Source: Candidatus Parcubacteria bacterium | GTDB taxonomy: Bacteria > Patescibacteriota > Minisyncoccia > Phycocordibacterales > UBA918 | Direction: 5' to 3' | NCBI GenBank assembly: GCA_046050355.1 | Contig: JBJOPW010000001.1 | Coordinates: 67,858 to 131,857 of the forward strand | DNA: 64,000 nt | Part shown: piece by piece, positions 3,108 through 60,570 of the stretch | How the letters are laid out: the number at the start of each line of letters is the position of its first letter | Numbering within the stretch: the stretch's first letter is position 1 | The notes under the pieces: model-generated | The model's database searches: none | Told to the model about the DNA's origin: nothing | The model's input: the letters and a program-made list of their open reading frames with translations, nothing else | Position numbers and translations under genes: made by a program

Positions 3108-3136
3108 ACTATAGCGGGAGAATCTCACTGTGGCAA
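3108..3136 (-). promoter_or_regulatory. Sigma70-like promoter TTGCCA-N17-TATAGT, 9 nt upstream of the tgt ATG
   Basis: Minus strand: TTGCCAcagtgagattctcccgcTATAGTagaccaattATG. No SD. Confidence 0.5.
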
Positions 3137-3203
3137 ACACACAAGTGACTACAAATCTGTATACGTAAAGTTGGCTCAAGCTCAAGCGCAATCAAAATGT
3201 CAC

Positions 3204-3282
3204 CAGACGAGGAACACGAACGATGAAGTGCGAGGTGTATTAAATATACATTGGTTGCTTTCGAGTGAAGTGCAACAAAGTC
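3204..3282 (-). repeat. 3'-flank element copy L1 (CTTTGTTG box, covarying hairpin TGTAT-ttaaa-ATACA, CTC, CCTCG)
   Basis: The box ends 23 nt after the TAG stop of the FKBP gene. Hairpin at 3236-3250. Aligns with the copies at 24472-24549, 32029-32105 and 58563-58635. Confidence 0.65.
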
Positions 3283-3303
3283 TGGGGGTATTTTGGACGT
3301 GCA

Positions 3304-3849
3304 CTATTCAGCTTTAGGAGCGATTTCGAGGAGGTCGATGGCAAACACGAGGTTCGCTCCACCAGGAATTGGACCATAACCTTGGTCACCATAGCCTTTA
3401 TCAGCTGGTATGACTAAAATACGTTTTCCTCCAACTTTCATCCCCACAATTCCCTCTTCCCAACCTTTGATGACCTTGCCTTCACCAACAGTAAAGGTGA
3501 ACGGCGTACCGCGTTTGTTCGAATTATCAAATTCTTGGCCATTTTGTAAGGTCCCAATGTAGTGTACAGAAACAGTATCACCAACCTTTACCTCGGCACC
3601 CGTTCCATAAATCACGTCATCAATGATGAGTTTCGCAAGATTGCCCGTGCTATCAGCGGCATTTACGATTGCTTCACGGAGATTACCAGCCTGATCACCT
3701 TCGTCTTTTACAAACACACTACCAACCTCTGCAGTTTGTGAAGAGTTTGAAATGGCTAATGAGGTGTCGTTTTTGGTAACGAGATACAGTGCCGCGGCCA
3801 TAGCCGTTACACTGAGAGCAATTCCAGCAATTTCTACTTTTGAAAACAT
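3304..3849 (-). CDS. FKBP-type peptidyl-prolyl cis-trans isomerase with N-terminal membrane anchor
   Basis: GDTVSVHYIGTLQNGQEFDNS...FTVGEGKVIKGWEEGIVGMKVGGKRILVIPADKGYG...LVFAIDLLEI. Confidence 0.9.
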   Translation of the reverse strand: MFSKVEIAGIALSVTAMAAALYLVTKNDTSLAISNSSQTAEVGSVFVKDEGDQAGNLREAIVNAADSTGNLAKLIIDDVIYGTGAEVKVGDTVSVHYIGTLQNGQEFDNSNKRGTPFTFTVGEGKVIKGWEEGIVGMKVGGKRILVIPADKGYGDQGYGPIPGGANLVFAIDLLEIAPKAE

Positions 3850-3907: not shown

Positions 3908-4978
3908 CTAATTAATTAGAATTTCTATATTTTTAGCCATTATTTGTTCTTGCAGAGCTTCATCACTCCGTGACGCTAAAGCAGCCAAAAAACTCTTTTC
4001 GTCTACTTCGGCCATCCGGCAAGGAGTGGCTTTGGCACATTGTGTATGAGGGTATAAACGCCATAATAATGCGCTGTTTGACACCTCTAAGCCAAGCACT
4101 AAACCAGTTTTAACATCCGGACTGAAATATTGATCAAAGATAAAATTACCTAATGAGTAGAAGATGGGCACGCCTTCGATATGGCCGATATCTTGTACAA
4201 CATGCGGATGATGTCCAATCACTGCGTCAACGCCATGCTTCACAAACCACGTCGCCAGGTCTTCTTGCTCGAGGTTGTGAGTGAGTTCATATTCTTCACC
4301 CCAATGAATATACACAAACTGAAAATCAGACTCCAAACTAGCTTTCTCGAGTAATGTGGTCATAACCGCACGATCGGGTGACTCAAACAATGTATGCACA
4401 CCAAGTATTGCCACTTTCGAGTCACCAAGAGAAAGAAAGGTGAGACTCGAAGAACTCACCGTCACAGCGTCACCAAACGCTACGATATTTGCTTCCAAAA
4501 GTGCTCGCTTAGCATTGATATAACCATCCATCCCGTAATCACGACTATGATTATTAGCCAGTGAGCTATGGGTTACCTGTAGTGCTTCAAGTAGTTTTAT
4601 ATGTTCTGGCTTAGTCGAAAAACGCATCTGACCACTTGGCGTCTTGATGTGTGGTGAAGCGATAGCACTCTCAAAATTGGTAACTACCGCACTACTGCTA
4701 GCAAATAATTTGAAAAAATCATACGGTTTCACAAGATTAGCATCAAGCAACTGTTCGACATGACGACCAAGCATGCTATCACCCGTAAAATAAACAGGTG
4801 GTATCGCAATTGTGCTGTCGATTTGCGCGGTTGTAGTGGTTGCACGTATTTGTTGTTCGATTACTTTGTTAGTCAGTGTGTACTCAAGTGTTGCTGTAGA
4901 CAATAACAGTAGTACTACACAAAAAAGAGTGACCCCGAGAACACTACTGAGTACGGTTGGTTTGCTTAGAGATATCAT
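3908..4978 (-). CDS. CapA/PGA_cap-family metallophosphatase-like protein (poly-gamma-glutamate synthesis CapA-like), membrane anchored
   Basis: YFTGDSMLGRHV, NFESAI, LANNHSRDYG, YIHWGEEY, VIGHHPHVVQ, YSLGNFIFDQ. Confidence 0.75.
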   Translation of the reverse strand: MISLSKPTVLSSVLGVTLFCVVLLLLSTATLEYTLTNKVIEQQIRATTTTAQIDSTIAIPPVYFTGDSMLGRHVEQLLDANLVKPYDFFKLFASSSAVVTNFESAIASPHIKTPSGQMRFSTKPEHIKLLEALQVTHSSLANNHSRDYGMDGYINAKRALLEANIVAFGDAVTVSSSSLTFLSLGDSKVAILGVHTLFESPDRAVMTTLLEKASLESDFQFVYIHWGEEYELTHNLEQEDLATWFVKHGVDAVIGHHPHVVQDIGHIEGVPIFYSLGNFIFDQYFSPDVKTGLVLGLEVSNSALLWRLYPHTQCAKATPCRMAEVDEKSFLAALASRSDEALQEQIMAKNIEILIN

Positions 4979-9206: not shown

Positions 9207-10167
9207 GGTCTTTAAGATCAGTATGCACACCATCACGAACATAAACGGGTAACGACTCATTATCTCCAGGTTCATGGTGGTGCCGGTTCTTATAAATGTA
9301 CAGAAGTGTCAGGAGTATACTCCCTCCCATAACCATAGCGAAGATAATCAGAATGGTTTGTAGTGGTACTACAGTAAAAAAAGTTGTGTCATAAAGGTTT
9401 GCTCGCTGTAATGTGCCGTATTCAACATCCAAAAAGGCTTTATGGCGTCCGTACATACCACTACGAGGTACTTCACCTCTAAACGGCGCCCGTTCGCCAG
9501 CAGCCAGTACTTTACCTTCATTATTTACTGCAATACTAGCTACCTCTCTTCCCCGCACGTCGTACACAATAATCTCGCCCTGTGGTTTGATCGGCAGGTC
9601 GCCGATGTTTTCTAGTTCGTAACTGACCGGAATAGTCTCGCCACTCGTTACATAGCGATCAATTATAAAATTATTAAGCCGCATATATTCGCTGCGCACA
9701 TCAGCCATCGAAATCCGCATGGTTACCCCAGGAGCCCGACCGCTCATAACCGCCGCTTCTGCTTCGTCTCGTTTATCACCATTACCAAAGCCGACAAAAG
9801 CGTAGTAATCACCTTGGACGGCATTTGGGTTTATTGTTAAGGTCACCGGGATTTTGACTGATTCGCCGGGTTGCAATTCCACTCGAGCTCGTGATACGGC
9901 AATCCAACTAGTCACATTGGTCGTTTGGTCCGTCATCACGGGTGATTCAAATGTCTTGATTGAACCATCTTCACCAAGGGTAATCGGATGAACGGACGGG
10001 AAAATTTTTACTGGCACGGTACCGGTATTGGTAATCTTAATCGTGTCTTCCAGAATATCCCGTGGCTTAACTTTGTGTTCGATAACTGGTGGCGTGACTG
10101 TATATGACTGAGCTGAAGCAATCAGAGGTGTTGTCAGTAAGCAAAATGTAAGAAAAATGTAACGCAT
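9181..10167 (-). CDS. Two-beta-sandwich surface protein with C-terminal TM anchor (DUF916/DUF3324-like, WxL-locus-type architecture)
   Basis: Signal peptide MRYIFLTFCLLTTPLIASA; ITNTGTVPVKIFPSV, VELQPGESVKIPVTLTI, YELENIGDLPIKPQGEIIVYD; C-terminal TM ILIIFAMVMGGSILLTLLYIY. Confidence 0.55.
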   Translation of the reverse strand: MRYIFLTFCLLTTPLIASAQSYTVTPPVIEHKVKPRDILEDTIKITNTGTVPVKIFPSVHPITLGEDGSIKTFESPVMTDQTTNVTSWIAVSRARVELQPGESVKIPVTLTINPNAVQGDYYAFVGFGNGDKRDEAEAAVMSGRAPGVTMRISMADVRSEYMRLNNFIIDRYVTSGETIPVSYELENIGDLPIKPQGEIIVYDVRGREVASIAVNNEGKVLAAGERAPFRGEVPRSGMYGRHKAFLDVEYGTLQRANLYDTTFFTVVPLQTILIIFAMVMGGSILLTLLYIYKNRHHHEPGDNESLPVYVRDGVHTDLKDHDINLKKN

Positions 10168-10173
10168 AAGATT

Positions 10174-13100
10174 TTAGTAAACAGGAACGGCTATATAGAC
10201 AATTTCGGTGGTATAACTAGCGGCTGGTTGCATCCCAGTCACCTTTACTCTATATACAATATCATGGCTGTCATTGGCTGGTAATGGACTATACATAACT
10301 TCAGCCACATCAGTATGGAGACCAGCATAACTATCAAGCGGAGCAAATCGCGTAGAACCACCCGTGAGCGTTGCATCTGTTGTATGGTAGCCGACACAAC
10401 CAGATGCGGTAGTGATACAACCAACCGCCCAAGCAGCCGGCACAGCATTAGTTCCGGTGACGGACGGGATTGGTGTCCCATAGCCATTTTGTAACTGCTG
10501 GCGCGCAAAAGACAGCACTCGGTAGCCATCAGTAGCATTAGTGGTGACCGCCAACCGGTGAGCTGCCACCGCATCAGTGTCAATTGGTATTGAACCGAAG
10601 GTTACCGTTGCCGGGGTAGTGGCTACCGTCGTAACTACACCAGCAGTCGTCGTACCACTTGGAAGTCCACTAATACTCAGTGTCAATTTTGGTGTCTCTG
10701 CAACAAGACTTGGGTATGATTCCCCGCTTGCTGGCGCAACCGGTGCGTCTTCAAAGACTTCGTAGAGTCTGAAGTAGTACACTGCCCCCGCCCGAGCAGC
10801 TGCATGACGGAGGTAAAAGGCAAATTCAGTCGACGCACCGGCTAGATGGGTGTACCCAGTCGTATAGGTTGGCGACTCGTTGTGTGTACCACAACCACTG
10901 CCTGTACCACCCGTACAGCTGTTAGCATCAGTCAGCACTTTAGTGGTAATAGTGGCATTATCAGTACCACCACCGTCGACATAACACCACGTTGAGGTGG
11001 CCGTACAAGCTGCTTGCGTCACGACATCTTTTGGCGACGTAAATGTTGGCGACTCGTCGTATTGGAGTTTAAATTTTATGTCTTGGCCCACCACATTTTT
11101 TCGTTGACCAACCGTAACGCGTAAAGTAAATTCATTTCCATTTTGTACCTCAATTGGTGAAATAATTTCACCAGAAAGTGGACTAAGGGGGGTTTCGCTT
11201 TCAGCATCATCATAAAAGCGCCAACGTTTTGTTTGTGGTGAATAGCCGGCTGTGCGGATTTGCGGGTAGTTAAAATAACCGTCTAATGGTGTACCGTCAC
11301 TCCGTACCATACGGAAACAGTAGGTATTACGTGAGATTGCACCATTGTGTTGAATAAACCAATCGTATTCTACGTCTTCACCCGGATCAACAATATAAGG
11401 GTTAGCTGGTGCCGGATTTTCTTCAACTAAACTACCAGCTCGATCAGCTACCGAAATTAACAAATCGCCTCCGGTTGGCGGGTTGGTACTTAAATTTGTA
11501 CCGTTTGTTGTCCCTGTGGCAGCGTACCCTCGCCAGATACCACTACCAGCCGCAGTGTCAAGATCACTCCAGGTACCAACGGTCGAACAGGAAGTAGCAC
11601 GCAATCCATACTGCAACTTAAAATCATACAGACCAGCCGGTAGGTTTGCGTTGGCTACCCGTAACGTCATGCGTAGTCGCACCAGGTCACCATCTCCGAG
11701 TGGTTCGTCGGCAATTGTAATGGGGTTGTTTTCACCCAAATCTGAGACACCAACCGGCCATGGGTCGGTGGGCTTCAGGGCATTATTATTAACATAGAAC
11801 CGATAGTAATTTTGACGAACAGCGAGTCCAGAAACTGGCCATTCCACAATTTCGGTACGATACGTCATTTCCCCTGAGGCTTCACTGCGCCACAGTTCAT
11901 AGGTGGACGTGCTCGTAATACGAGCACCGGCCATTGGTAAGGGAAAGGTCGTATTAGCCCCCACGACGCGGGTATTAGCAAATATTGATGCATTGTTTGT
12001 CGCTTCAATTGGTGAGAAGATTGAGATTGATAACGCTACTGGCTCAGTACCGGCGTTGGTCGTTCCATTTGTTCGTTGTACCTCCATAGCACCGGCACTG
12101 GTCTGCAGGTTTTCAATAATCCAAGCCACTGAAGTATGTCCGCTCGGTGCAGTAGCAGCGCCCTCAAGTCGGTATGATACGGCGCCAATACTCGACAGCC
12201 AAACTTCGTGGCCAAAGTTGTTGACGTTGCCTTGAGCGGTCATGCGTTTTTGTGTGTGTATAAACGAACGCGCTAAACTATTGAGCGTTGTTGGTATTGA
12301 TTCTGTTTCTACGGTTCCAACTGCAGTATACGTATGTTCACTTCGTTGCACCTGCCAATTAATGCCGGTAAATTCAACCACGGCATAGCTCACATTGATA
12401 ATAGCCCCACCGGCTCCACGATTAAAAACGGGTGCCGTACTGGTGGGACTCCAACTTGATGTTACTTGCCCGGCATAATACACGTTACGCGCAACATCAC
12501 GGTTCTCAATACCAGTTATAAAGACCACCACATCAGTATTATCGGTAATGGTACCAAGGGCAGTGCCGGTGGCTATCAAGGCGGCACTCGCCATATTGAC
12601 ACTCCCCACCCCTCTTACCTTCATTTCATTGTCGGTGCCAGCATCCCCAATAAACTCAACGATTTCCCAGTTCACCCGTGTATTTCCGGTGGCAGCTGGT
12701 GGCCGAGAAATGGTAAAATTGCTCGGTAAGTTAGCCGCCGAAATGTACGCGGTGATATCATCGGCATTTTGCGCTCCTCCACCAGCTGTCGTGCGTCCCG
12801 GCCCAGTGTTGTGGGTGTCAGTGAGACGGACAAAGGCAGTCGTTGTGCTCGCTGGAGCAGTATAGTCAACACCAGCGGTTAGCGTTTGTGACGTACCGGC
12901 GATGGTAGCAGTGCCACGCTGCACTTTAAAATCACGCTTGGGAGCAGTGGTTAGTTCTGCATAGTTACTATAGGTTAAGGGTTCTCCATTATTGGTGAGT
13001 CTAAAGCAATACGTAGTATTATAAGCAGTAATATTGGTAGAGGTAATACTAAATTCATACTCAGCAAATTCAGTTGTACTCATGACCAGAGCAGAGGTAG

Positions 13101-23529: not shown

Positions 23530-23790
23530 AAGCAATGCAGCAACGTGACTCGCGACCGTCATCGTTCACAGTGTGGTCTCCACCCCACTTCTGTATAGAC
23601 GAGCGACAGGCATACTAATGCTGTAACAGTGGCTGTTCTGTCCTAGCATTCCATTGTGGTGGGAGCTAGCAGTATCATTAAATAGATACCTCCAAACATT
23701 AGTACTCATTCATTGTAGCTTGCGCGTGTCAGCAAAAGAGAAACTTATACACAAAAAACAATCTCAAGTTTACCAACTATACAGACGATG

Positions 23791-23819
23791 TTAGAAATTT
23801 TTATACAAAATGATATAGT
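23791..23819 (+). promoter_or_regulatory. Promoter TTAGAA-N17-TATAGT, 6 nt upstream of the HD-gene ATG (leaderless geometry)
   Basis: TTAGAAatttttatacaaaatgaTATAGTatatcaATG. No SD. Confidence 0.45.
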
Positions 23820-23825
23820 ATATCA

Positions 23826-24419
23826 ATGCCAGATTTGGATTCACTCCTTGAGTTTACACGCCTGATGTCAAAGCTTTCAACTACTGAGCGTTTTGTTAAC
23901 AAAATCGGTACTAATACGCGTGAGAATTTCTCAGAACACTGCACACAACTTGCTTTTACTGCTTGGTACCTGATTGAAAAACATAAAATGTCGCTGGCTA
24001 TAGAGAAAGTTCTACAATACGCTCTCATACACGACATTGTGGAAACGTATACCGGCGACTTTCCCACCCATTTACCTAACTGTGACCGACAGGAAAAAGA
24101 ACGCCGAGAACGTGAAGCCTTTGCATGTATCAAACAAGATTTTCCCGACGCTACAAGTTTATGGTTACAATACGCGCAATATGAACAAAAGATCGATGCC
24201 GAAAGTAAGTTCGTTTACGCACTCGATAAACTACTACCAGGACTTAACATTTATTTAGACTCAGGCAAAGCCTGGGCTGAGAGGGATCCGGAGAATAACA
24301 CTTGGAGTTTCGATGATCTATCAAAACGGGTAGCACACGATCAGTTAGTTTCTCAGCTATGGGAAGAAATTCGGACTCGAATCTATACAGAACATCCAGA
24401 GTTTTTCTCCCAGCCGTAA
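23826..24419 (+). CDS. HD-domain phosphohydrolase (YfbR-like 5'-deoxynucleotidase family)
   Basis: RENFSEHCTQLAFTAWYL...ALIHDIVETYTGDFP (H...HD...D metal-binding pattern). Confidence 0.75.
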   Translation: MPDLDSLLEFTRLMSKLSTTERFVNKIGTNTRENFSEHCTQLAFTAWYLIEKHKMSLAIEKVLQYALIHDIVETYTGDFPTHLPNCDRQEKERREREAFACIKQDFPDATSLWLQYAQYEQKIDAESKFVYALDKLLPGLNIYLDSGKAWAERDPENNTWSFDDLSKRVAHDQLVSQLWEEIRTRIYTEHPEFFSQP

Positions 24420-24471
24420 AAAAATGTAACATATACTGTCGTCAGTAAAGAGTTCGCCAAATGACCCTAGA

Positions 24472-24549
24472 TTCGAGGCGTGCGAGGAAATTGTTGTGAG
24501 CCGTACTGGCTGTACGGTGAACTGCAATTTACCGAAGCACAACAAAGAA
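24472..24549 (-). repeat. 3'-flank element copy L2 (hairpin CCGTAC-agcca-GTACGG)
   Basis: The box (+ strand caacaaag, 24540-24547) ends 23 nt after the TAG stop at 24571. Hairpin at 24501-24517. Confidence 0.65.
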
Positions 24550-24570
24550 GATAGGGTTAGTTGGTGGACT

Positions 24571-25677
24571 CTACCCGGTCCAGTTGAAGAGGAGGATTGA
24601 GAAGTCTTCAAGTCCAACCTTCCCATTACTATTGATATCCGCCGGCGGGTTTGAGTCACCGCCATTAGTACTCCACCAGAAAATGAGAATAGAAAAGTCG
24701 GTTAGATTAACCTTACCATCACGACTGAGGTCAGATGGCGAGCTGGGTGCGCCATCGACGCCTAAAAGCAGCTGCACGACACTACTATAACCACTTTGGG
24801 TCAGTAGTGGTGGTGTGCCAGTAATAGAGCGAACTTTGATTGGATAGGTGGCATTACGGAGACTCGCCGTATTGAGCGTATAGCTGTAACGACCACTAGT
24901 GTCACTGGTCGTTCGTTCGGTGCGAAGACTACTGTTCCCTACCTGGATTTCGATCGCAGCACTCGGGACTGCCTGTCCAGAAATCGTAACTGTTCCGCCA
25001 GGACTGACTTTAGTATTTGATAAGGCTAAGGTCGGCGGCAACAAAAGGCCACTGACATTTGTTACGGCGCCTTGAGTCACATCAAAGGTACTATTGAGCG
25101 TGATAGAGCGTACCCCCGTCGAGTCATTCGCCCACACACCCATGGTAGCGGTTCCTGGCGACGCTTTGGTCGAAAATTCAAAACGACCGGTACTATTAGC
25201 TCGTACGGAACCGACAGACTTGGTATCAAGAAGAAAATTAACTTGCTGATTTGGATACGCAATACCAGTAATACTGATTGACGAATCACCAAGATCGCGG
25301 GTACCACCGCCACCTCCTCCACCGCCAGATGATCCACCGCCGCCAGAACCAGCCGGTTCTATTTGACAGGTAGCCGAACAAAAATCACCACCGGTGTTAT
25401 TCGCATCGTCACACTCTTCTGCATAAGTAGTCTGCAAAATACCATCACCGCAGTATGGTCCATAGTCACAGACAGCATTGCATTGTCGCCCAGCAATGGT
25501 GGTACTGTAGAGACCAATTTCACCAGGCACATCGCACTGTTCCCCGACATCGATGAGTGCGTTCCCGCAGATACTCAAATCAATAGTGGTTGTTGCTGTT
25601 GAAATAGTGACAGCGAGTACTTCGTGTGGCATAACACCAAGCGAAGCGACGAAGAGGAGGAGAGCAGCAAGGCGCAT
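24571..25677 (-). CDS. Secreted protein: Cys-rich repeats (Myxococcus cysteine-rich-repeat-like), Gly linker, two Ig-like domains, C-terminal dockerin
   Basis: CGNALIDVGEQCD...YCGDGILQTTYAEECDDANNTGGDFCSATCQIE; GSGGGGSSGGGGGGGG. Dockerin DLSRDGKVNLTDFSILIFWW...DINSNGKVGLEDFSILLFNW. Confidence 0.7.
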   Translation of the reverse strand: MRLAALLLFVASLGVMPHEVLAVTISTATTTIDLSICGNALIDVGEQCDVPGEIGLYSTTIAGRQCNAVCDYGPYCGDGILQTTYAEECDDANNTGGDFCSATCQIEPAGSGGGGSSGGGGGGGGTRDLGDSSISITGIAYPNQQVNFLLDTKSVGSVRANSTGRFEFSTKASPGTATMGVWANDSTGVRSITLNSTFDVTQGAVTNVSGLLLPPTLALSNTKVSPGGTVTISGQAVPSAAIEIQVGNSSLRTERTTSDTSGRYSYTLNTASLRNATYPIKVRSITGTPPLLTQSGYSSVVQLLLGVDGAPSSPSDLSRDGKVNLTDFSILIFWWSTNGGDSNPPADINSNGKVGLEDFSILLFNWTG

Positions 25678-28600: not shown

Positions 28601-28708
28601 ACTAAATACCTATATATTGTATCGGATAAAGGCCTGAGTTATGCACTAGTTATGCACAGTAAGCAACCTCTGTGACAGCTGGTGAGTTTTAGTCACTGCG
28701 ATAATTTT

Positions 28709-28734
28709 TAAAAAAGACGAGGTCGGACCTCGTC
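28709..28734 (-). terminator. Intrinsic terminator (GACGAGG-family palindrome, copy 4) closing the tandem RNA array
   Basis: Minus strand: GACGAGGTC-c-GACCTCGTC followed by TTTTTTaaaaatt. The plus strand has no T-run after the hairpin, which sets the orientation. Confidence 0.7.
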
Positions 28735-28790
28735 CTTAGGGGCACCAAGAAACTAAAGTTCCTCAAATAAAGTGAGCGTCTGGTGGCCAA

Positions 28791-28935
28791 GAGACGTGGA
28801 CTGGGCCATTAGGGATAGTGAGAAATGGGGTGGGACCCATTTCTCAAGACTCATTGTGGATATTTGTGAGTGATAACGAAACAAATAGCCCAATGAGTGG
28901 ACAGCCTCTGTAAGAAGTCAGCTCACGGAAATTCG
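28791..28935 (-). ncRNA. Unclassified structured RNA motif, copy A (strand inferred from the downstream terminator)
   Basis: Helices: cgtggactg/cagctcacg, gagaaatggg/cccatttctc, actcattg/caatgagt, tatttgt/acaaata. No ORF. The helices covary with copy B. Confidence 0.55.
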
Positions 28936-28969
28936 TCAGGTAAGCATAAAGAGAGTGTGCGGTAGCTGT

Positions 28970-29111
28970 GAGACGTGGACTGGGCCATTAGGTGAGAAAA
29001 CGTGGGACGTTTTCGCAAGACTCATTGCGTAATTTTATGAGTGGTAACGAAATAAAATTGCCAATGAGTAGACAGTTTCTGTAAGAAATAGGCCCAGCTC
29101 ACGGAAATTCG
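28970..29111 (-). ncRNA. Unclassified structured RNA motif, copy B
   Basis: Helices: cgtggactgggcc/ggcccagctcacg, gagaaaacg/cgttttcgc, actcattg/caatgagt, aattttat/ataaaatt. Loops tggga and gagtgRtaacgaa are conserved with copy A. Confidence 0.55.
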
Positions 29112-29231
29112 CAATAGTCGGCGAAGAAGATTCAAGAAACATAGTGATTCGGCCTAGAAAAGACATTAGGAATAGTCTTCTCTAGGTAAGTTCGCAATAG
29201 TCGGCTTGCGCTTCGTTTGCTCACTTAATTT

Positions 29232-30460: not shown

Positions 30461-30504
30461 ACTACTTTTCGTAAACATTAGATAACCCCCATGTCAAAAT
30501 GAAT

Positions 30505-30572
30505 ATAAATATAGAATAGACAAAGTATTCAGTCACTTTTCAATTTTCCATCTTCACTATTCTATATTTATT
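30505..30572. repeat. 15-bp perfect inverted repeat (ataaatatagaatag / ctattctatatttat) with a 38-nt spacer, between the ABC ATPase stop and the permease promoter
   Basis: Arms at 30505-30519 and 30558-30572, read directly. Confidence 0.7.
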
Positions 30573-31921: not shown

Positions 31922-32028
31922 GCATAACAATTGAAGACGTCTCTCATATCCCCATTACCAAATCAAAACAAATAAGATGTGTGATTTGTTTCAGCATGAG
32001 TCTGCTAGGATTTACAAACTTGATGCAG

Positions 32029-32105
32029 TTCGAGGCGGACGAGTAAAATTTTGTGAGGCGTATTAAATATACGTTTAATAAAATTTTATGAAGTCCAACA
32101 AAGAA
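32029..32105 (-). repeat. 3'-flank element copy L3 (hairpin CGTAT-ttaaa-ATACG, flanked by taaaatttt/aaaatttta)
   Basis: The box (+ strand caacaaag, 32096-32103) ends 21 nt after the relic TAG at 32125-32127. Hairpin at 32059-32073. Confidence 0.6.
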
Positions 32106-32124
32106 ATGCGCTAGTTTGGAGATT

Positions 32125-32154
32125 CTAGTTGGTAATGTTCTTAACCCAACCAAA
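32125..32154 (-). pseudogene. Relic or alternative gene 3' end encoding FGWVKNITN-stop, a duplicate of the last 9 codons of the Fn3 gene
   Basis: Minus strand TTT GGT TGG GTT AAG AAC ATT ACC AAC TAG versus the real end TTT GGT TGG GTT AAG AAT ATA ACT AAT TAA. All differences are synonymous third positions. The relic is in frame with the real stop. Confidence 0.5.
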
Positions 32155-32229
32155 AAGTAAAACAACAACCGTGAGGTTGTATGATTTTACTTTGTTCCAA
32201 CTTTCTATTCCTAATGAAAGTTCTGGAAC

Positions 32230-32288
32230 CTTTTGGTGGATTAAGATATAACTAATTTAATTAGTTATATTCTTAACCCAACCAAAAG
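32230..32288 (-). repeat. Long imperfect hairpin (~26 bp) whose 3-nt loop is the TAA stop codon of the Fn3 gene
   Basis: The left arm (32230-32256) is the inverted copy of the last ~10 codons (32260-32288). Pairing checked base by base: 2 bulges, 1 mismatch. Confidence 0.7.
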
Positions 32289-33732
32289 TAGACTCAAAGT
32301 TCTCAAGAATCAAATCAATAATATTCTTCTCTTGAATCGGTGTAAAGAGCACGAAGTTTTCAGACTGTATGGTATTTTCAGCTTCATCAGTACAGTTAAG
32401 CCAGAATTGGTAGACAGTCGCCGGCGCAAAATCAGTAATAACCTCAACGTGGTTGGTATTATATTCAAGTACTTCTTTTTCGAGCACAATCGGTTCAACT
32501 CCACCCGCCACTCCTTCACGATAGGTCATAATACATGAAGCCGGTTCATCAGTATTCCATTCAACGATTGTCTGTACCCGTGATTCTCCCCCCGGGAAAA
32601 TAGTAGATTCATTGGTCACATTTGAGATCAGCGGAGCCGAATTATCGCGTACCGTAATAAATTGAATCGGTTGACTACGAACGCGGTCTCCGCCAGAGTT
32701 TTCGGCAATCACAAACGCGACATAGCGAGTACCCAGAGTAAGATCAGAGAGACGCATCTGGTGTGTAGTGGCTAAAGTTGGTCGCCCTACAGAATTCTGG
32801 GTACCAAGGGTGAGATCTTGGTATTCAATGAGCGCTTTCGCCGGCACGGTTGTATCCCACGCTAGGGTGGCAGCATTTTCTTCTACCTTGACGATGCGTA
32901 AGTTACGAATGTCGGGTAACGAGGCTTTGGTTTTAAACGTGTACGTTCTACTTTCACCAGTAATTTGGTACGAATCGGTGGAACGAACTTGAAAACTGTA
33001 CTCAGTAAATGGCTCAAGACCAATGAGCTTAATCTCGTGGTCAGTGACCGCACCAGCGGTTGACGATTGTGAGAAATCAAAATTGGTACCATCAAAGCCG
33101 TTAGTTCGGGCAAAACGAACTTCTGAATTGGCTTCACGATCAGTCACCCAGGACACAGTTGCTGAAGTAGTTTCTGGTACTACCGTTGGTGGACCAACAA
33201 TGGTCAAATCTTCAGTAATACCCTGAATCGCTTTGACAGTTTCGTTAAGAATTTCCTGGAGCTGTTGTGGGCTTTGGATTTGCTGAATTTGTTCAACAAT
33301 CTCTTGCGGTGTATTAGTTTGTCCGGGTCCAACCCCACTACCTGAGCCACTGTCTGAAGATTTCTCGCTATCGACATCTATTTTGTAGTCAGCGGAGATA
33401 CCTTGGTTACCATCAGCATCAGCGGAAATCACTCGAAAATAGTACGTACGACCAGGGTCGAGGTTTTCGAGGGTCACCGAATGACTGGTACGATTTGCTA
33501 CTGGCACACGGACAACTCCCAGATCTGGATTGAGACTGTAATTTACTGCCGAATCCGCGCTTTCATTCGTCTTCCAAGTAATCGTTACCGTTGTTTCGGT
33601 GGATGAAGCAACTTTTACTTCGGTGATTTCTGGTGCTTTTGTATCACTGGTTTGCGCTATAAGCGGGTTACTCGGTAACGCAAAAACACCGAGGAAGAGG
33701 AGGAGTAGCGGAAATAAACGCAACATAATCAT
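32257..33732 (-). CDS. Secreted protein with four fibronectin-type-III-like repeats
   Basis: Signal MIMLRLFPLLLLFLGVFALP. Repeats of the type TxxTVTITWKTNESADSAVNY...LxPGxxYYFRVxSxDxxGN occur four times. Confidence 0.75.
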   Translation of the reverse strand: MIMLRLFPLLLLFLGVFALPSNPLIAQTSDTKAPEITEVKVASSTETTVTITWKTNESADSAVNYSLNPDLGVVRVPVANRTSHSVTLENLDPGRTYYFRVISADADGNQGISADYKIDVDSEKSSDSGSGSGVGPGQTNTPQEIVEQIQQIQSPQQLQEILNETVKAIQGITEDLTIVGPPTVVPETTSATVSWVTDREANSEVRFARTNGFDGTNFDFSQSSTAGAVTDHEIKLIGLEPFTEYSFQVRSTDSYQITGESRTYTFKTKASLPDIRNLRIVKVEENAATLAWDTTVPAKALIEYQDLTLGTQNSVGRPTLATTHQMRLSDLTLGTRYVAFVIAENSGGDRVRSQPIQFITVRDNSAPLISNVTNESTIFPGGESRVQTIVEWNTDEPASCIMTYREGVAGGVEPIVLEKEVLEYNTNHVEVITDFAPATVYQFWLNCTDEAENTIQSENFVLFTPIQEKNIIDLILENFESTFGWVKNITN

Positions 33733-58242: not shown

Positions 58243-58562
58243 ACCAATTCCTCTACATTATATATGTGTCAGCCTATCATGATGTAACGTTACCCACAGT
58301 AAGTTTTATATAGAAGATAGAAGATTGAATACGGAATATACAATATACGAGACAAAGACAGGCACTGCCTCTTTACACTATTCAATGTTATCAGTTCAAT
58401 CTTCCCTAGAATTTTAACTTAAAACTTTGAAAGAAAATTTTCTCAGACGAGGCGCACAAAGAAGAAAAGCGAAGGGGAGTTAAATAAGGAGCTTTTCTAA
58501 TGTAATAATGAATAAGTGAACAAATTATAAAGCTGGTGGCTCTAGAATAAAATCGTTTATGA

Positions 58563-58635
58563 CAAGGCGTCTGAACGCCAAAGAACGAGCCGTATTGCTA
58601 TACGGTGAGGATTTCGAGTGAAACACAACACAGTC
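58563..58635 (-). repeat. 3'-flank element copy L4 (hairpin CCGTAT-agca-ATACGG)
   Basis: The box (+ strand caacacag, 58626-58633) ends 23 nt after the TAG stop at 58657. Hairpin at 58590-58605. Confidence 0.65.
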
Positions 58636-58656
58636 AGAGGCGATTTTAGTCAGAGC

Positions 58657-60570
58657 CTAGCCGGTCCAGTTGAAGAGGAGAATCGAGAAGTCCGTCAAAT
58701 TCACCTTACCGTCCTGACTAATATCCGCGGGCGGATTGGAGTCGCCACCATCAGTACTCCACCAGAAAAGGAGAATAGAAAAGTCGGTGAGGTTCACCTT
58801 ACCATCACGATTGAGATCAGAATTATTACCCGCTGCTTGTGATGGCCCACCGACTCCATAGAGGGTGTACTGTGAGAAGTTTGATGTCAGTGTACCATCA
58901 ACTGCTCTCGCACGTACTTTGTAGGTGCCATTACTAAATCCACTGGTATCCACTGGTGTTGACCACGCCCCACTACTATTAGCGGTAACGGTGTATGACT
59001 TGCGTGACGCGGTGTTTTTGTCCTTTTCATTCTCAATGGTAACCTGAGCATTCGGGAAAGTATAGCCAGAAATCGTCAATGCTTGTCCGGGATTAACTGG
59101 ATTCGGTGAAACCAGAATCGAAGGCGGAATATTGATATTACTGAGAGCAGATTCACGAGCTCCGGCCACGGTAAAGGAAGTACTGAAGGTTGAAGACTTC
59201 GTCCCCGCTTGATCGGTGGCATAGATGCCAAAGGTGTATGCACCCCGAGCGATTTTGTCCACGGTGGCAGTATACGAACCATCATTGGTAGCGTTGGCAG
59301 TTACCGCTGCTTTGCCGTCAACGAGCACCGTTATCTTTGCTCGTGGCGAAGCATAACCAGTGATCACCACTTGTCCATCACCACTACGGTACGGACCCGG
59401 AGCTGATTCGAATCCCCCGCCCCCGCCCCCGCCACTAGCGCCGCCACTACCACCCCCACCGCCACCGCCACTGCCGCCACCAGAACTACCTGAAGTACTA
59501 CCACCACCGGTAGCCGGTCCACCACTATTACCACTACCGGAACCACTTCCAGTGCCCCCATTACCGGTACCAGTACCTGAGCCGCTACCATTACCATTTT
59601 CGGTTGAGCTACCGGTCGGCTGGTTGCTCACGAAGAAGCTAATAAGGTAGTCGTCGGGGTTAGTGTTACCTTCATCATCACGGCACCGCACGTAAAAATC
59701 TTGTTGAGAATTGGGTGTCACCGCCACCACCTGAGAATGGAAGAGGAGGCCTGAGTTAGAGAAGACAGCGGACATAGTGTTGTAATCAGCGCCTGGACTG
59801 CGCGCAAAACGACAAAACGCAAACTCATCAGTTTCGAGACTAATCTCTACATTTAAGGTCGTGCCACCAACGGTCGAGGTAGGCTGACCATTAAACCGAA
59901 ATGGGGGAATGGCTTCCGTCGTATCGACGGGGGCGACACCGACTTGATCAACAAGGGCAATCAAAAAACCAGCATTGCCAATCTCGCTAGCGGTATTATC
60001 AAAAATACGCATAGCTACTTCATGAGTACCAACCGTTGATCCATTAGTAATGCCAGGAATATCTGCCGGGGTGGTAGTAGTGCCGGTTGTGGTACTAAAA
60101 CTCGTACCGCCGGTTTGTGCGAGTGTCGTATGATTACCGATTTTTAACTCGAGCAAACTACCCGCTGCAATTCCTGTGGTTTGGTTGAGACGATACCGGA
60201 TGAGCCCCGGCGTACCCGGGACAATATCAACCTTATCATCACTTGCCGATACGACTGAACCAACCTCACGTCGCACACCGTTGACTCGTAACTCGACATT
60301 ACGGAGCTCGGAAAACTGGGCACTGCCCGCGACTGTAAAGTCTGTTGGTGGTGTAATCTCTAGATAGCCCTCAGGTGGTATACCCGTATCAACCAAACGA
60401 AAAGACAAGGTATGATTTGCAGCCCTTGTCGGCGCTGACTGCGAAATAGTGTCTTTGTACTCCTTCACATTACGAGCAAACGAAAATTGTGGCGATACAA
60501 ACAAAAAACCAATGAAGCCAAGCCACAAAGTCAAAGCAATGACCAGACGCAACGGTCTCGTGATATGCAT
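58657..60570 (-). CDS. Secreted protein: N-terminal domain related to the 402-aa protein, Gly-rich linker, two Ig-like domains, C-terminal dockerin
   Basis: KDTISQSAPTRAANHTLSF (compare SDTLSDSAPSVPSNHTISF); GSGSGTGTGNGGTGSGSGSGNSGG...GGGGGG. Dockerin DLNRDGKVNLTDFSILLFWW...DISQDGKVNLTDFSILLFNW. Start set to the ATG at 60570. Confidence 0.7.
   Translation of the reverse strand: MHITRPLRLVIALTLWLGFIGFLFVSPQFSFARNVKEYKDTISQSAPTRAANHTLSFRLVDTGIPPEGYLEITPPTDFTVAGSAQFSELRNVELRVNGVRREVGSVVSASDDKVDIVPGTPGLIRYRLNQTTGIAAGSLLELKIGNHTTLAQTGGTSFSTTTGTTTTPADIPGITNGSTVGTHEVAMRIFDNTASEIGNAGFLIALVDQVGVAPVDTTEAIPPFRFNGQPTSTVGGTTLNVEISLETDEFAFCRFARSPGADYNTMSAVFSNSGLLFHSQVVAVTPNSQQDFYVRCRDDEGNTNPDDYLISFFVSNQPTGSSTENGNGSGSGTGTGNGGTGSGSGSGNSGGPATGGGSTSGSSGGGSGGGGGGGSGGASGGGGGGGFESAPGPYRSGDGQVVITGYASPRAKITVLVDGKAAVTANATNDGSYTATVDKIARGAYTFGIYATDQAGTKSSTFSTSFTVAGARESALSNINIPPSILVSPNPVNPGQALTISGYTFPNAQVTIENEKDKNTASRKSYTVTANSSGAWSTPVDTSGFSNGTYKVRARAVDGTLTSNFSQYTLYGVGGPSQAAGNNSDLNRDGKVNLTDFSILLFWWSTDGGDSNPPADISQDGKVNLTDFSILLFNWTG

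Follow-up and report, generated by a model that had tools for sequence, protein, structure and literature searches.

Four copies of a hairpin-bearing sequence are situated, all in one orientation, behind unrelated genes in a stretch of 64,000 nt from a Candidatus Parcubacteria bacterium (contig JBJOPW010000001.1, positions 67,858 to 131,857; hereafter the window). The question raised by this locus is what kind of element these copies represent. An earlier note, made from the sequence alone, had described an element of ~80 nt and had considered two possibilities for it, namely kinship with repetitive extragenic palindromic (REP) sequences and bacterial interspersed mosaic elements (BIMEs), or a processing or stability signal in the 3′-untranslated region (3′-UTR). 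The analysis presented here points to a different answer. The four sites are probably, although by no means certainly, resident copies of a mobile, non-autonomous element that has a structured core and belongs among the MITEs (transposable elements of the miniature inverted-repeat type). That degree of confidence applies to the explanation as a whole, i.e. to a MITE with a structured core, its docking at stop codons, selection on its copies and a role at gene ends taken jointly. Throughout, L1 to L4 designate the window copies, and L followed by three digits designates a locus fetched from another genome.

Extent and anatomy of the element

Direct reading of the sequence, together with profile and covariance-model searches, bore out the four sites and their common orientation. 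A profile constructed from the copies matched just these four places in the 64-kb window; leave-one-out profiles recovered each copy at E values of 8e-12 to 9e-8, and no other site fell below E = 0.1. A covariance model derived mainly from copies in other genomes gave the four window copies 58-80 bits, with everything else in the window at 12 bits or less. The copies are approximately 58-69% identical in pairwise comparisons and are situated 7-26 kb apart, amid housekeeping genes. As had been claimed, the genes upstream of them (encoding FKBP, two dockerin/Ig proteins and an Fn3 protein) are unrelated, so that gene duplication does not account for the repeat. About 75 nt from L4 lies the 3′ half of a fifth copy, now decayed (Table 1).

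The unit proved to be longer than the ~80 nt proposed earlier, when only its innermost helix had been seen. Each copy is an imperfect palindrome of 121-128 nt in which outer arms (P0), one with an A-run and the other with a T-run, surround a core of 68-71 nt; the helices of the core (P1 to P3) are parted by conserved loops that are non-palindromic and asymmetric. On the minus strand of the window, which was the strand read in the earlier note and is called the reader's strand below, the order of parts is as follows: the stop codon (TA plus G or A), an arm of ~20-25 nt with the A-run, cTT/cTG-TGTT, P1 (GYGC, pairing with GCRC), TTCR, P2 (8-11 bp, variable and free in sequence), TTCAY, P3 (CGTAY-loop-RTACG), CTCR, P2′, TC, P1′, GCCTYG and finally the arm with the T-run. 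P3 is the hairpin that had been noticed first, and it forms the innermost tip of a long nested hairpin. The variants listed for it (TGTAT/ATACA, CGTAT/ATACG, CCGTAT/ATACGG and CCGTAC/GTACGG) are all correct, as is the spacer of 23 nt between TAG and CT(T/G)TGTTG, which is exact for L1, L2 and L4 and measures 21 nt from the first TAG in L3. The motif CTC-N~20-CCTYG was recovered as well, with a spacing that is fixed at N19 rather than approximate. The statement that no U-run follows the hairpin holds for the inner hairpin, but not for the whole element, given the A-run and T-run of its outer arms.

The occurrence of TAG at three of three stops is unremarkable, since TAG is the commonest stop codon in the window (18 of 34 genes, the others having TAA in 10 cases and TGA in 6). 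In relatives, the same position holds TAA or TGA.

One boundary of L2 could be fixed independently, because it is precisely at 24446 that the similarity to a related genome (L035) stops. That homology breaks exactly at the end of the element indicates that the adjoining region is a variable slot. In the window, this slot (23756-24445) carries an HD-domain gene on the plus strand; in relatives, open reading frames (ORFs) of 147-159 aa (L201 and L035, at 3421-3948 in L035), 61 aa (L202) or 145 aa (L204) are found there.

Covariation and the strand that folds

An alignment of 106 distinct copies, 102 from other genomes and the four from the window, was used to assess base pairing. The consensus comprises 24 pairs, of which 19 show changes on both sides. 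Paired cells amount to 93.7%, compared with 73.7% in shuffles, and the covariation score is 0.600, compared with 0.216 in shuffles; sliding the partners by 1-3 columns lowers it to 0.12 or less. The covariation proposed for the hairpin is thereby upheld in a far larger sample: P3 is paired in 96.5% of cases, and its closing and fifth pairs switch between C-G and U-A together.

The two strands are not equivalent in their folding. Of 110 copies, 104 are more stable as the complement of the reader's strand; the mean difference is 9.6 kcal/mol, compared with 2.1 kcal/mol for composition-matched shuffles, and it is present in the core and in the arms separately. The consensus energy is -27.5 kcal/mol on the complement and -15.0 kcal/mol on the reader's strand. 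Mismatches in the outer arms, as they appear on the reader's strand, comprise 133 A.C compared with 40 G.T, and 241 pyrimidine-pyrimidine compared with 44 purine-purine; on the complement these become G.U wobbles and G.A or A.A pairs. For the window copies, the values in kcal/mol on the plus and minus strands, respectively, are -37.7 (z -3.5) and -26.7 (z -2.6) for L1, -64.9 (z -10.8) and -40.6 (z -5.0) for L2, -42.8 (z -7.9) and -21.5 (z -3.2) for L3, and -46.2 (z -6.5) and -37.7 (z -4.1) for L4. The z-scores of four copies from relatives likewise favour the same strand. Mutation bias was rejected by inference as the source of this asymmetry: the usual C-to-T bias of the coding or leading strand predicts G.T on the reader's strand, and the opposite was seen.

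The orientation of the folded strand with respect to genes is also biased. It is antisense to both neighbours at 42 loci, compared with 9 in the opposite orientation; a further 16 loci have the copy between convergent genes and 2 between divergent genes. The Saccharibacteria-lineage copies that were fetched all have this orientation. In the direction of the gene, a canonical bidirectional terminator comes after many Patescibacteria copies, which makes antisense transcription through those copies unlikely.

Distribution of the family

To look beyond the window, a pattern was scanned against one genome per species (185,579 species genomes). Only the boxes and the 3′ half of P3 were fixed in this pattern, leaving P1 and P2 in full, the arms and the other (5′) half of P3 free. 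At least 119 matches were obtained, compared with a rough chance expectation of about two dozen. The full architecture is present in ~108 among the matches listed; the other 11 are attributable to chance (six are coding sequences in Bacteroidales and five lack the architecture). Carriers among the matches listed include Saccharibacteria, Paceibacteria, Kaiserbacteria and other Patescibacteria, as well as many Desulfobacterales, Syntrophales, Syntrophobacterales and Thermodesulfobacteriota. Many further copies exist outside the window. One match, L035, belongs to a Saccharibacteria assembly and is orthologous to L2, which places the window in that group; the identical ABC protein is recorded under a Parcubacteria label. 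A covariance model based on the alignment of 106 copies identified ~30 more in the fetched loci, all of them overlooked by the pattern.

The same pattern gave 0 matches in 2.9 million viral contigs, and a plasmid collection gave no match. Rfam 15 yielded no match in the window at gathering thresholds, none at E <= 1 in four loci, none at E <= 10 for the element alone (156-nt search space), and chance-level matches only for a Desulfobacterota copy. A literature search found no relevant described element for Saccharibacteria, Patescibacteria or Desulfobacterota. Within the window, 4 of the 9 intergenic gaps longer than 100 nt are occupied by the element.

Evidence for mobility

Several properties of the family are those of a MITE. 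The unit is small, at 121-128 nt in the window and up to ~190 nt in Desulfobacterota, and it contains no shared reading frame, as is apparent from the indels between copies. The outer arms pair in all lineages, as terminal inverted repeats; examples are CAGGCTGTTGAAAAAC and CAGCCCGTTGATAAAC, TGACGGCTTCGTAAAAAGTC and TGATGATCTCGTAAAAAGTC and, in window copy L4, GGCTCTGACTAAAATCG and GGCTCTAGAATAAAATCG.

Target duplications are clear in relatives. One Thermodesulfobacteriota assembly provided 17 aligned copies of a unit of ~190 nt with imperfect terminal inverted repeats, with further repeat matches every few kb. Perfect 4-bp duplications of the form NTAN flank 6 of these 17 copies (GTAT, CTAA, ATAA twice, TTAC and GTAG). 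In the Desulfobacterales and Syntrophales, the unit starts with TGACGGCTTCGTAAAAAGTCC and ends with ..TCATCA, and the duplications (ACGC, AAAT, ATTT, AGAA, GCCTT and ACTT) are arbitrary in sequence. At L110, a normal copy (1713-1867) adjoins a palindromic element of ~194 nt (1873-2066) with a different interior, the perfect 20-bp ends of which (TGACGGTTTCGTAAAAAGTC) are the ends of the studied family in Desulfobacterota. The presence of the same 20-bp ends around other palindromic cargo indicates that the ends are a separable mobility module.

Presence or absence among relatives was examined at two scales. In 80 related Patescibacteria loci totalling 839 kb, 2 copies only were found. The gene order PGA_cap-FKBP-TGT is kept in 35 of these 80 loci, and the FKBP-TGT gap measures 6-134 nt in 30. 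The element occupies that gap only in the window and in L151, in each case directly behind the FKBP stop; 33 others surveyed are without it, and three have the genes differently arranged. An ordinary terminator hairpin occupies the gap in all five loci that were read, including L166, which is one of the two closest by FKBP identity and has a TGT 96.7% identical. A set of relatives with an ABC protein 93-96% identical (L201-L204 and L206) gave a similarly uneven picture. L201 carries four copies within 15.7 kb: two are orthologs of L2 and L3, and the other two occupy junctions at which the window lacks the element. In L204 there is a single copy, in L202 and L203 a decayed one, and in L206 none.

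Under the explanation favoured here, a transposase acting in trans would recognise the terminal inverted repeats and insert the unit with a short target duplication, as shown for the relatives and as would apply by extension to the window. The duplication is of 4 bp in Desulfobacterota. The flanks in Patescibacteria fit TA or CTAG, with the TA dinucleotide inseparable from an extension of the palindrome; in the window, a clear duplication is seen at L3 only (CTAG/CTAG). The arm motif GGCT..AAAA and the TA-centred targets are, we presume, reminiscent of the IS5 family. Solo terminal repeats and their adjacent ORFs were inspected also: one candidate ORF is of low complexity, and the neighbours are housekeeping genes.

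Insertion at stop codons

The earlier note had proposed a fixed distance from stop codons. The tie to stops holds in the family at large, with a co-oriented ORF ending 11-30 nt before TGTTG in 48 of the 99 copies with a called left neighbour; the exact distance of 26 nt is found at 20 loci, and TGA, TAA and TAG are all used. The anatomy of the ends bears on this. In Desulfobacterota, TGA constitutes the first three bases of the terminal repeat, and in Patescibacteria the stop consists of TA plus the element's first A or G. At L005 and L055 the original stop codon is situated directly after the 3′ duplication, from which it follows that insertion occurred exactly between the last sense codon and the stop. 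Anatomy and flanks together suggest that the outermost bases of the element restore the stop codon, so that a flush insertion would leave the protein unchanged. Survival of such flush insertions would produce the fixed 23-nt spacing (26 nt to TGTTG) behind stops.

At L3, the stop that survives only as a relic in the window corresponds to a live Fn3 stop in L204, where the element is directly behind it; in both the window and L201, the last ~33 nt of the Fn3 gene were duplicated by a later insertion of ~135 nt. The insert is situated between the duplicated gene ends, in a stretch at ~32125-32290. Along with a second hairpin and a terminator-like one (32165-32180), it contains a palindrome of 28 bp that has the present stop (32257) at its centre. 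An alignment judged by eye gives the whole stretch ~97% identity to L201 despite saturated synonymous sites in all neighbouring genes (43-52%), which makes it a strongly conserved non-coding stretch.

Selection on resident copies

Comparison with L201 and L035 made it possible to ask whether the copies are constrained. For five genes, identity at codon position 3 is 43-52%, compared with 92-99% at positions 1 and 2, so neutral sites are saturated. L2 and its ortholog in L035/L201 are nevertheless identical at 117 of 125 positions (93.6%), compared with 43% at codon position 3 of the adjacent gene. Between L3 and its L201 ortholog (4114-4258), the loops and the inner arm are kept, and the helices have changed, always on both sides: P1 is GGAC/GTCC in one and GCAC/GTGC in the other, P3 is CGTAT/ATACG and CGTAC/GTACG, and P2 and the outer P0 arm have also changed. 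The DNA downstream of L3 is unalignable with L201. A comparison of L041 with L003 in the Desulfobacterota gave no contrast, the whole neighbourhood being similarly conserved. The window comparisons show that resident copies are not decaying but are constrained in sequence in the loops and in pairing in the helices, on the strand complementary to the flanking genes.

A possible role at gene ends

For the host, the element could serve as a gene-end hairpin module, its A-run, long stem and T-run resembling an oversized bidirectional terminator. Such a module would replace or supplement ordinary terminators, and would be stronger against antisense transcription entering the gene end. The G.U pairs would make the hairpin stronger from the antisense side, which would explain why the opposite orientation is rare between co-transcribed genes. 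L1 is bounded by the FKBP stop on one side and by a promoter-like TGT site on the other, where relatives have a canonical terminator; as the promoter-like site is just past L1, the element occupies the position of the FKBP terminator. A hairpin scan found only one canonical terminator hairpin in the intergenic DNA of the window, although it missed the GACGAGG hairpins described below, and a terminator scan also flagged the ordinary hairpin at 32165-32180, outside L3. The role of a gene-end hairpin, terminator or insulator is put forward with low confidence, on the basis of these arrangements.

Two other functions at this position were considered and rejected. A promoter for the downstream gene does not fit, in that L2 is between convergent genes, distances to starts are ~100-320 nt and separate promoter-like sites exist beyond L1. 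Recoding or read-through of TAG (PYLIS- or SECIS-like) is not indicated either, the frames after TAG closing inconsistently in 13-65 codons and relatives using TAA or TGA.

Alternative explanations

The data are not uniformly favourable to a MITE with a role at gene ends. No clear target duplication was found at L1, L2 or L4, and no transposase gene was found between matching terminal repeats in ~1.8 Mb of fetched loci. The T-runs of the window copies are only 3-4 long and are inside the outer stem; a simple terminator scan calls no full copy, its sole match within a copy being on the minus strand of L4, where the inner P3 has a T-rich tail that is weak; and in many relatives a canonical terminator comes right after the element. 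The better-folding strand is, puzzlingly, the one not expected to be transcribed at these sites. Furthermore, a core shared across phyla, conserved non-palindromic loops and deep purifying selection are unusual for an ordinary MITE, and suggest that the core has a function of its own.

That last consideration leads to an alternative in which the core is a functional structured RNA encoded on the plus strand (either an RNA that binds protein or a small-RNA gene that is mobile), the arms provide a closing stem or terminator as well as transposon ends, and the position at stop codons merely reflects where insertions are tolerated. Pairing, G.U wobbles and purine-rich loops all indicate the plus strand as the folded one. 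The loops (C[AG]AGGC / AACA[AC][AG]; GA(A) / YGAA; YGAG / RUGAA), the last two of which resemble tandem G.A pairs, are kept from Patescibacteria to Desulfobacterota while the helices covary, resident copies are under purifying selection, and a T-run follows the outer stem. The long Desulfobacterales version has, immediately upstream of the folded strand, an extra terminal repeat and an AT-rich spacer, together with TTGATG and TAAT-like hexamers that are spaced much as in a promoter. No consistent plus-strand promoter was found in the window, however, where the single promoter-like match, inside L3, scores at chance level, and none was recognised by eye in the short Patescibacteria or the Thermodesulfobacteriota versions. 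A bidirectional canonical terminator shields many copies on that side, Rfam gave no match even with the 156-nt search space, and the antisense bias with respect to neighbours (42 loci compared with 9) is unexpected for a free-standing gene. This alternative is regarded as rather unlikely. A related idea is offered tentatively, the odds being against it: that the core represents a new class of functional structured RNA or single-stranded DNA structure riding on a transposon, antisense at gene ends. Such a class would have three helices and purine-rich, tandem-G.A-like loops, would be kept by selection in ultra-small Saccharibacteria genomes and shared with Desulfobacterota, and would have multiplied in at least one Thermodesulfobacteriota genome, to roughly one repeat per few kb in the fetched loci.

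The two suggestions of the earlier note fare less well. In the first, the element acts in cis in the upstream mRNA as a 3′-UTR processing, stability or termination signal, possibilities including a platform for Rho or some other factor, weakly folded and rich in pyrimidines, immediately behind the stop. Its positional part stands: the stop codon is where the element begins, both neighbours usually share its orientation, and in relatives it is often situated between the stop and a canonical terminator and is therefore transcribed in that direction, while L1 in the window stands in for the FKBP terminator. The mRNA-sense strand is, moreover, C-rich and G-poor (C 27%, G 20%). The structural part does not stand, because selection has preserved the helices on the complement of the mRNA strand, which itself has A.C mismatches, pyrimidine-pyrimidine loops and consistently worse energies and z-scores. 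L3, behind a terminator-like hairpin (32165-32180) and away from the live stop, has conserved its structure all the same, and the 9 loci in the opposite orientation between co-directional genes, with the 16 between convergent genes, are not as a cis-acting signal would have them. A signal of this kind thus appears unlikely. Least probable by far is that the Y1 (RAYT-like) transposase encoded at 1214-1849 mobilises the element as one of the REP/BIME or REPIN type. A Y1_Tnp gene is indeed present in the window, the element is, like REP/BIME and REPIN-RAYT sequences, a multicopy, long-persisting extragenic palindrome, it folds strand-specifically, and CGAGG is common to it and the GACGAGG hairpins. 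The Y1 gene is, however, flanked by GACGAGG-N5-CCTCGTC hairpins of its own that are unrelated in sequence to the element, and the shared pentamer, which had been likened to the GACGAGG palindrome, reads CAAGG in Desulfobacterota and in most of the family. REP sequences are palindromes of 20-40 nt with GTAG or a symmetric doublet; the present unit, at ~120-190 nt, has conserved non-palindromic loops, no GTAG and no REP doublet symmetry, and its copies are not clustered. In relatives it has terminal inverted repeats and 4-bp target duplications, neither of which, to our knowledge, is made by HUH Y1 enzymes (IS200/IS605, RAYT).

Comparison with known elements

The element was compared with described systems. 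Like the bacterial MITEs (Correia/CREE of Neisseria, RUP, ERIC, Nezha and Chunjie), it is small and non-coding, with terminal inverted repeats and, clearly so in relatives, short target duplications; many of its copies are intergenic and near gene ends, they form long hairpins, and their presence or absence varies between relatives. It differs in its cross-phylum core with asymmetric loops and covarying helices, in deep purifying selection, in strand-specific antisense folding and in insertion exactly at stops; its parent insertion sequence was not found in the fetched loci. Identity with the Chunjie MITE was rejected on repeat lengths, since in Chunjie, from a Geobacter, the terminal repeats measure 21 bp and the direct repeats 9 bp (PMC3184786) rather than 4 bp. 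It is apparent that the family is set apart from described MITEs by its cross-phylum structured core, selection, strand asymmetry and stop-codon docking.

Rickettsia palindromic elements are mobile palindromic repeats that are inserted in frame within genes and translated. They are alike in their tolerated contact with coding sequence, whereas the family studied here ends the frame at its first bases. Bidirectional intrinsic terminators resemble the element in having an A-run, a stem and a T-run directly behind genes; the stem of the element, however, encloses ~70-90 nt of conserved structure and its T-run is within an outer stem that is longer. SPRITE (PMC10969869) and similar terminator-like repeats are alike in position only, being dispersed, terminator-looking and at gene ends, whereas the element is much longer, has a structured interior and weak T-runs in the window, and occurs in unrelated phyla.

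Other candidates were discarded. Integron attC sites have R″ (RYYYAAC) proximal to the gene, a complementary R′ (GTTRRRY) distal to it, and cassette arrays; in the element the GTT-containing box is at the wrong end either way, TGTTG and CCTYG are not complementary, and the copies are spaced 7-26 kb apart. A palindromic element derived from IS200/IS605, with subterminal hairpins, is ruled out by the terminal inverted repeats and duplications. No convincing match by eye to hammerhead or hairpin ribozyme cores, a K-turn or a C/D-box was found, and the Rfam C/D-box match has an E value of ~9.

Other features of the window

The coordinates of the copies and of the features associated with them are given in Table 1.

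Table 1. Copies of the element and associated features in the window. The strand given for a whole element is the better-folding one.
Feature	Position	Strand	Remarks
Copy L1, whole element	3186..3306	+	Core 3208-3277, from TGTTG to CCTCG on the minus strand; covariance model 59.3 bits
Copy L2, whole element	24446..24573	+	Core 24474-24544; P3 24501-24517; 80.1 bits
Copy L3, whole element	32005..32127	+	Core 32031-32100; 75.5 bits; CTAG at 32124-32127 and 32005-32008
Copy L4, whole element	58535..58659	+	Core 58563-58630; 58.3 bits
TAG stop, FKBP gene	3304..3306	-	Outer edge of L1
TAG stop, dockerin/Big_7 protein gene	24571..24573	-	Outer edge of L2
TAG stop, second dockerin protein gene	58657..58659	-	Outer edge of L4
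Former stop of Fn3 gene (relic TAG)	32125..32127	-	Present stop at 32257
Decayed half copy with TTTGTGCGCCTCGTCTGAGAAAATTTT	~58426..58462	-	Matches 3′ half of element; weak hits, E = 2.4 (covariance model) and 0.14-0.26 (profile)
Promoter-like site for TGT (TTGCCA-17-TATAGT)	3108..3136	-	Just past L1; -10 region conserved in L166

The window contains further repeats. Four hairpins of the form AAAGACGAGG-N5-CCTCGTCTTT, with an A-run and a T-run, were observed at 1152-1183, 1694-1725, 1767-1798 and 28706-28737. Three of these flank or overlap the Y1_Tnp gene (1214-1849) and are unrelated to the studied element; they look like that gene's own REP-like or terminator-like repeats. Two direct repeats of ~86 nt, 78% identical, are situated at 28840-28925 and 29011-29096, in a gap of 631 nt (28601-29231). 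Members of this ~86-nt family occur also in L202 (~9700-9900 and 11330-11700), within its Fn3-ABC and ABC-MacB gaps. As they appear to have disrupted copies of the studied element in L202, they may be considered a second mobile repeat family.

The ABC-MacB gap, which is without the element in the window and is filled in L201, contains at 30480-30560 an AT-rich hairpin (AAATATAGAATAG..CTATTCTATATTT), after which comes a stretch resembling a promoter (TTGACA/TGTCATAAT) that relatives have in common. A single minus-strand ORF of 7,456 codons extends over 33751-56121; its orthologs have 6,919-7,470 residues and a DUF2341 domain, one of them with a Laminin_G_3 match.

Significance

If the explanation favoured here is true, a single undescribed family fills a good share of the larger intergenic regions in this genome, and marks gene ends in many uncultured Patescibacteria and Desulfobacterota. 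It would need to be annotated or masked, lest it pass for terminators, small RNAs or gene extensions. The core, with its covariation, asymmetric loops, selection and strand preference but no Rfam match, is a concrete candidate for a new functional motif; should it indeed belong to a new class, its activity would be of a specific kind and more than that of a mere hairpin, for instance that of an antisense insulator, a catalytic RNA or a platform for protein binding. Finally, an element that restores the stop codon can sit flush against a reading frame, which would offer mobile DNA a simple way to colonise extremely compact genomes.

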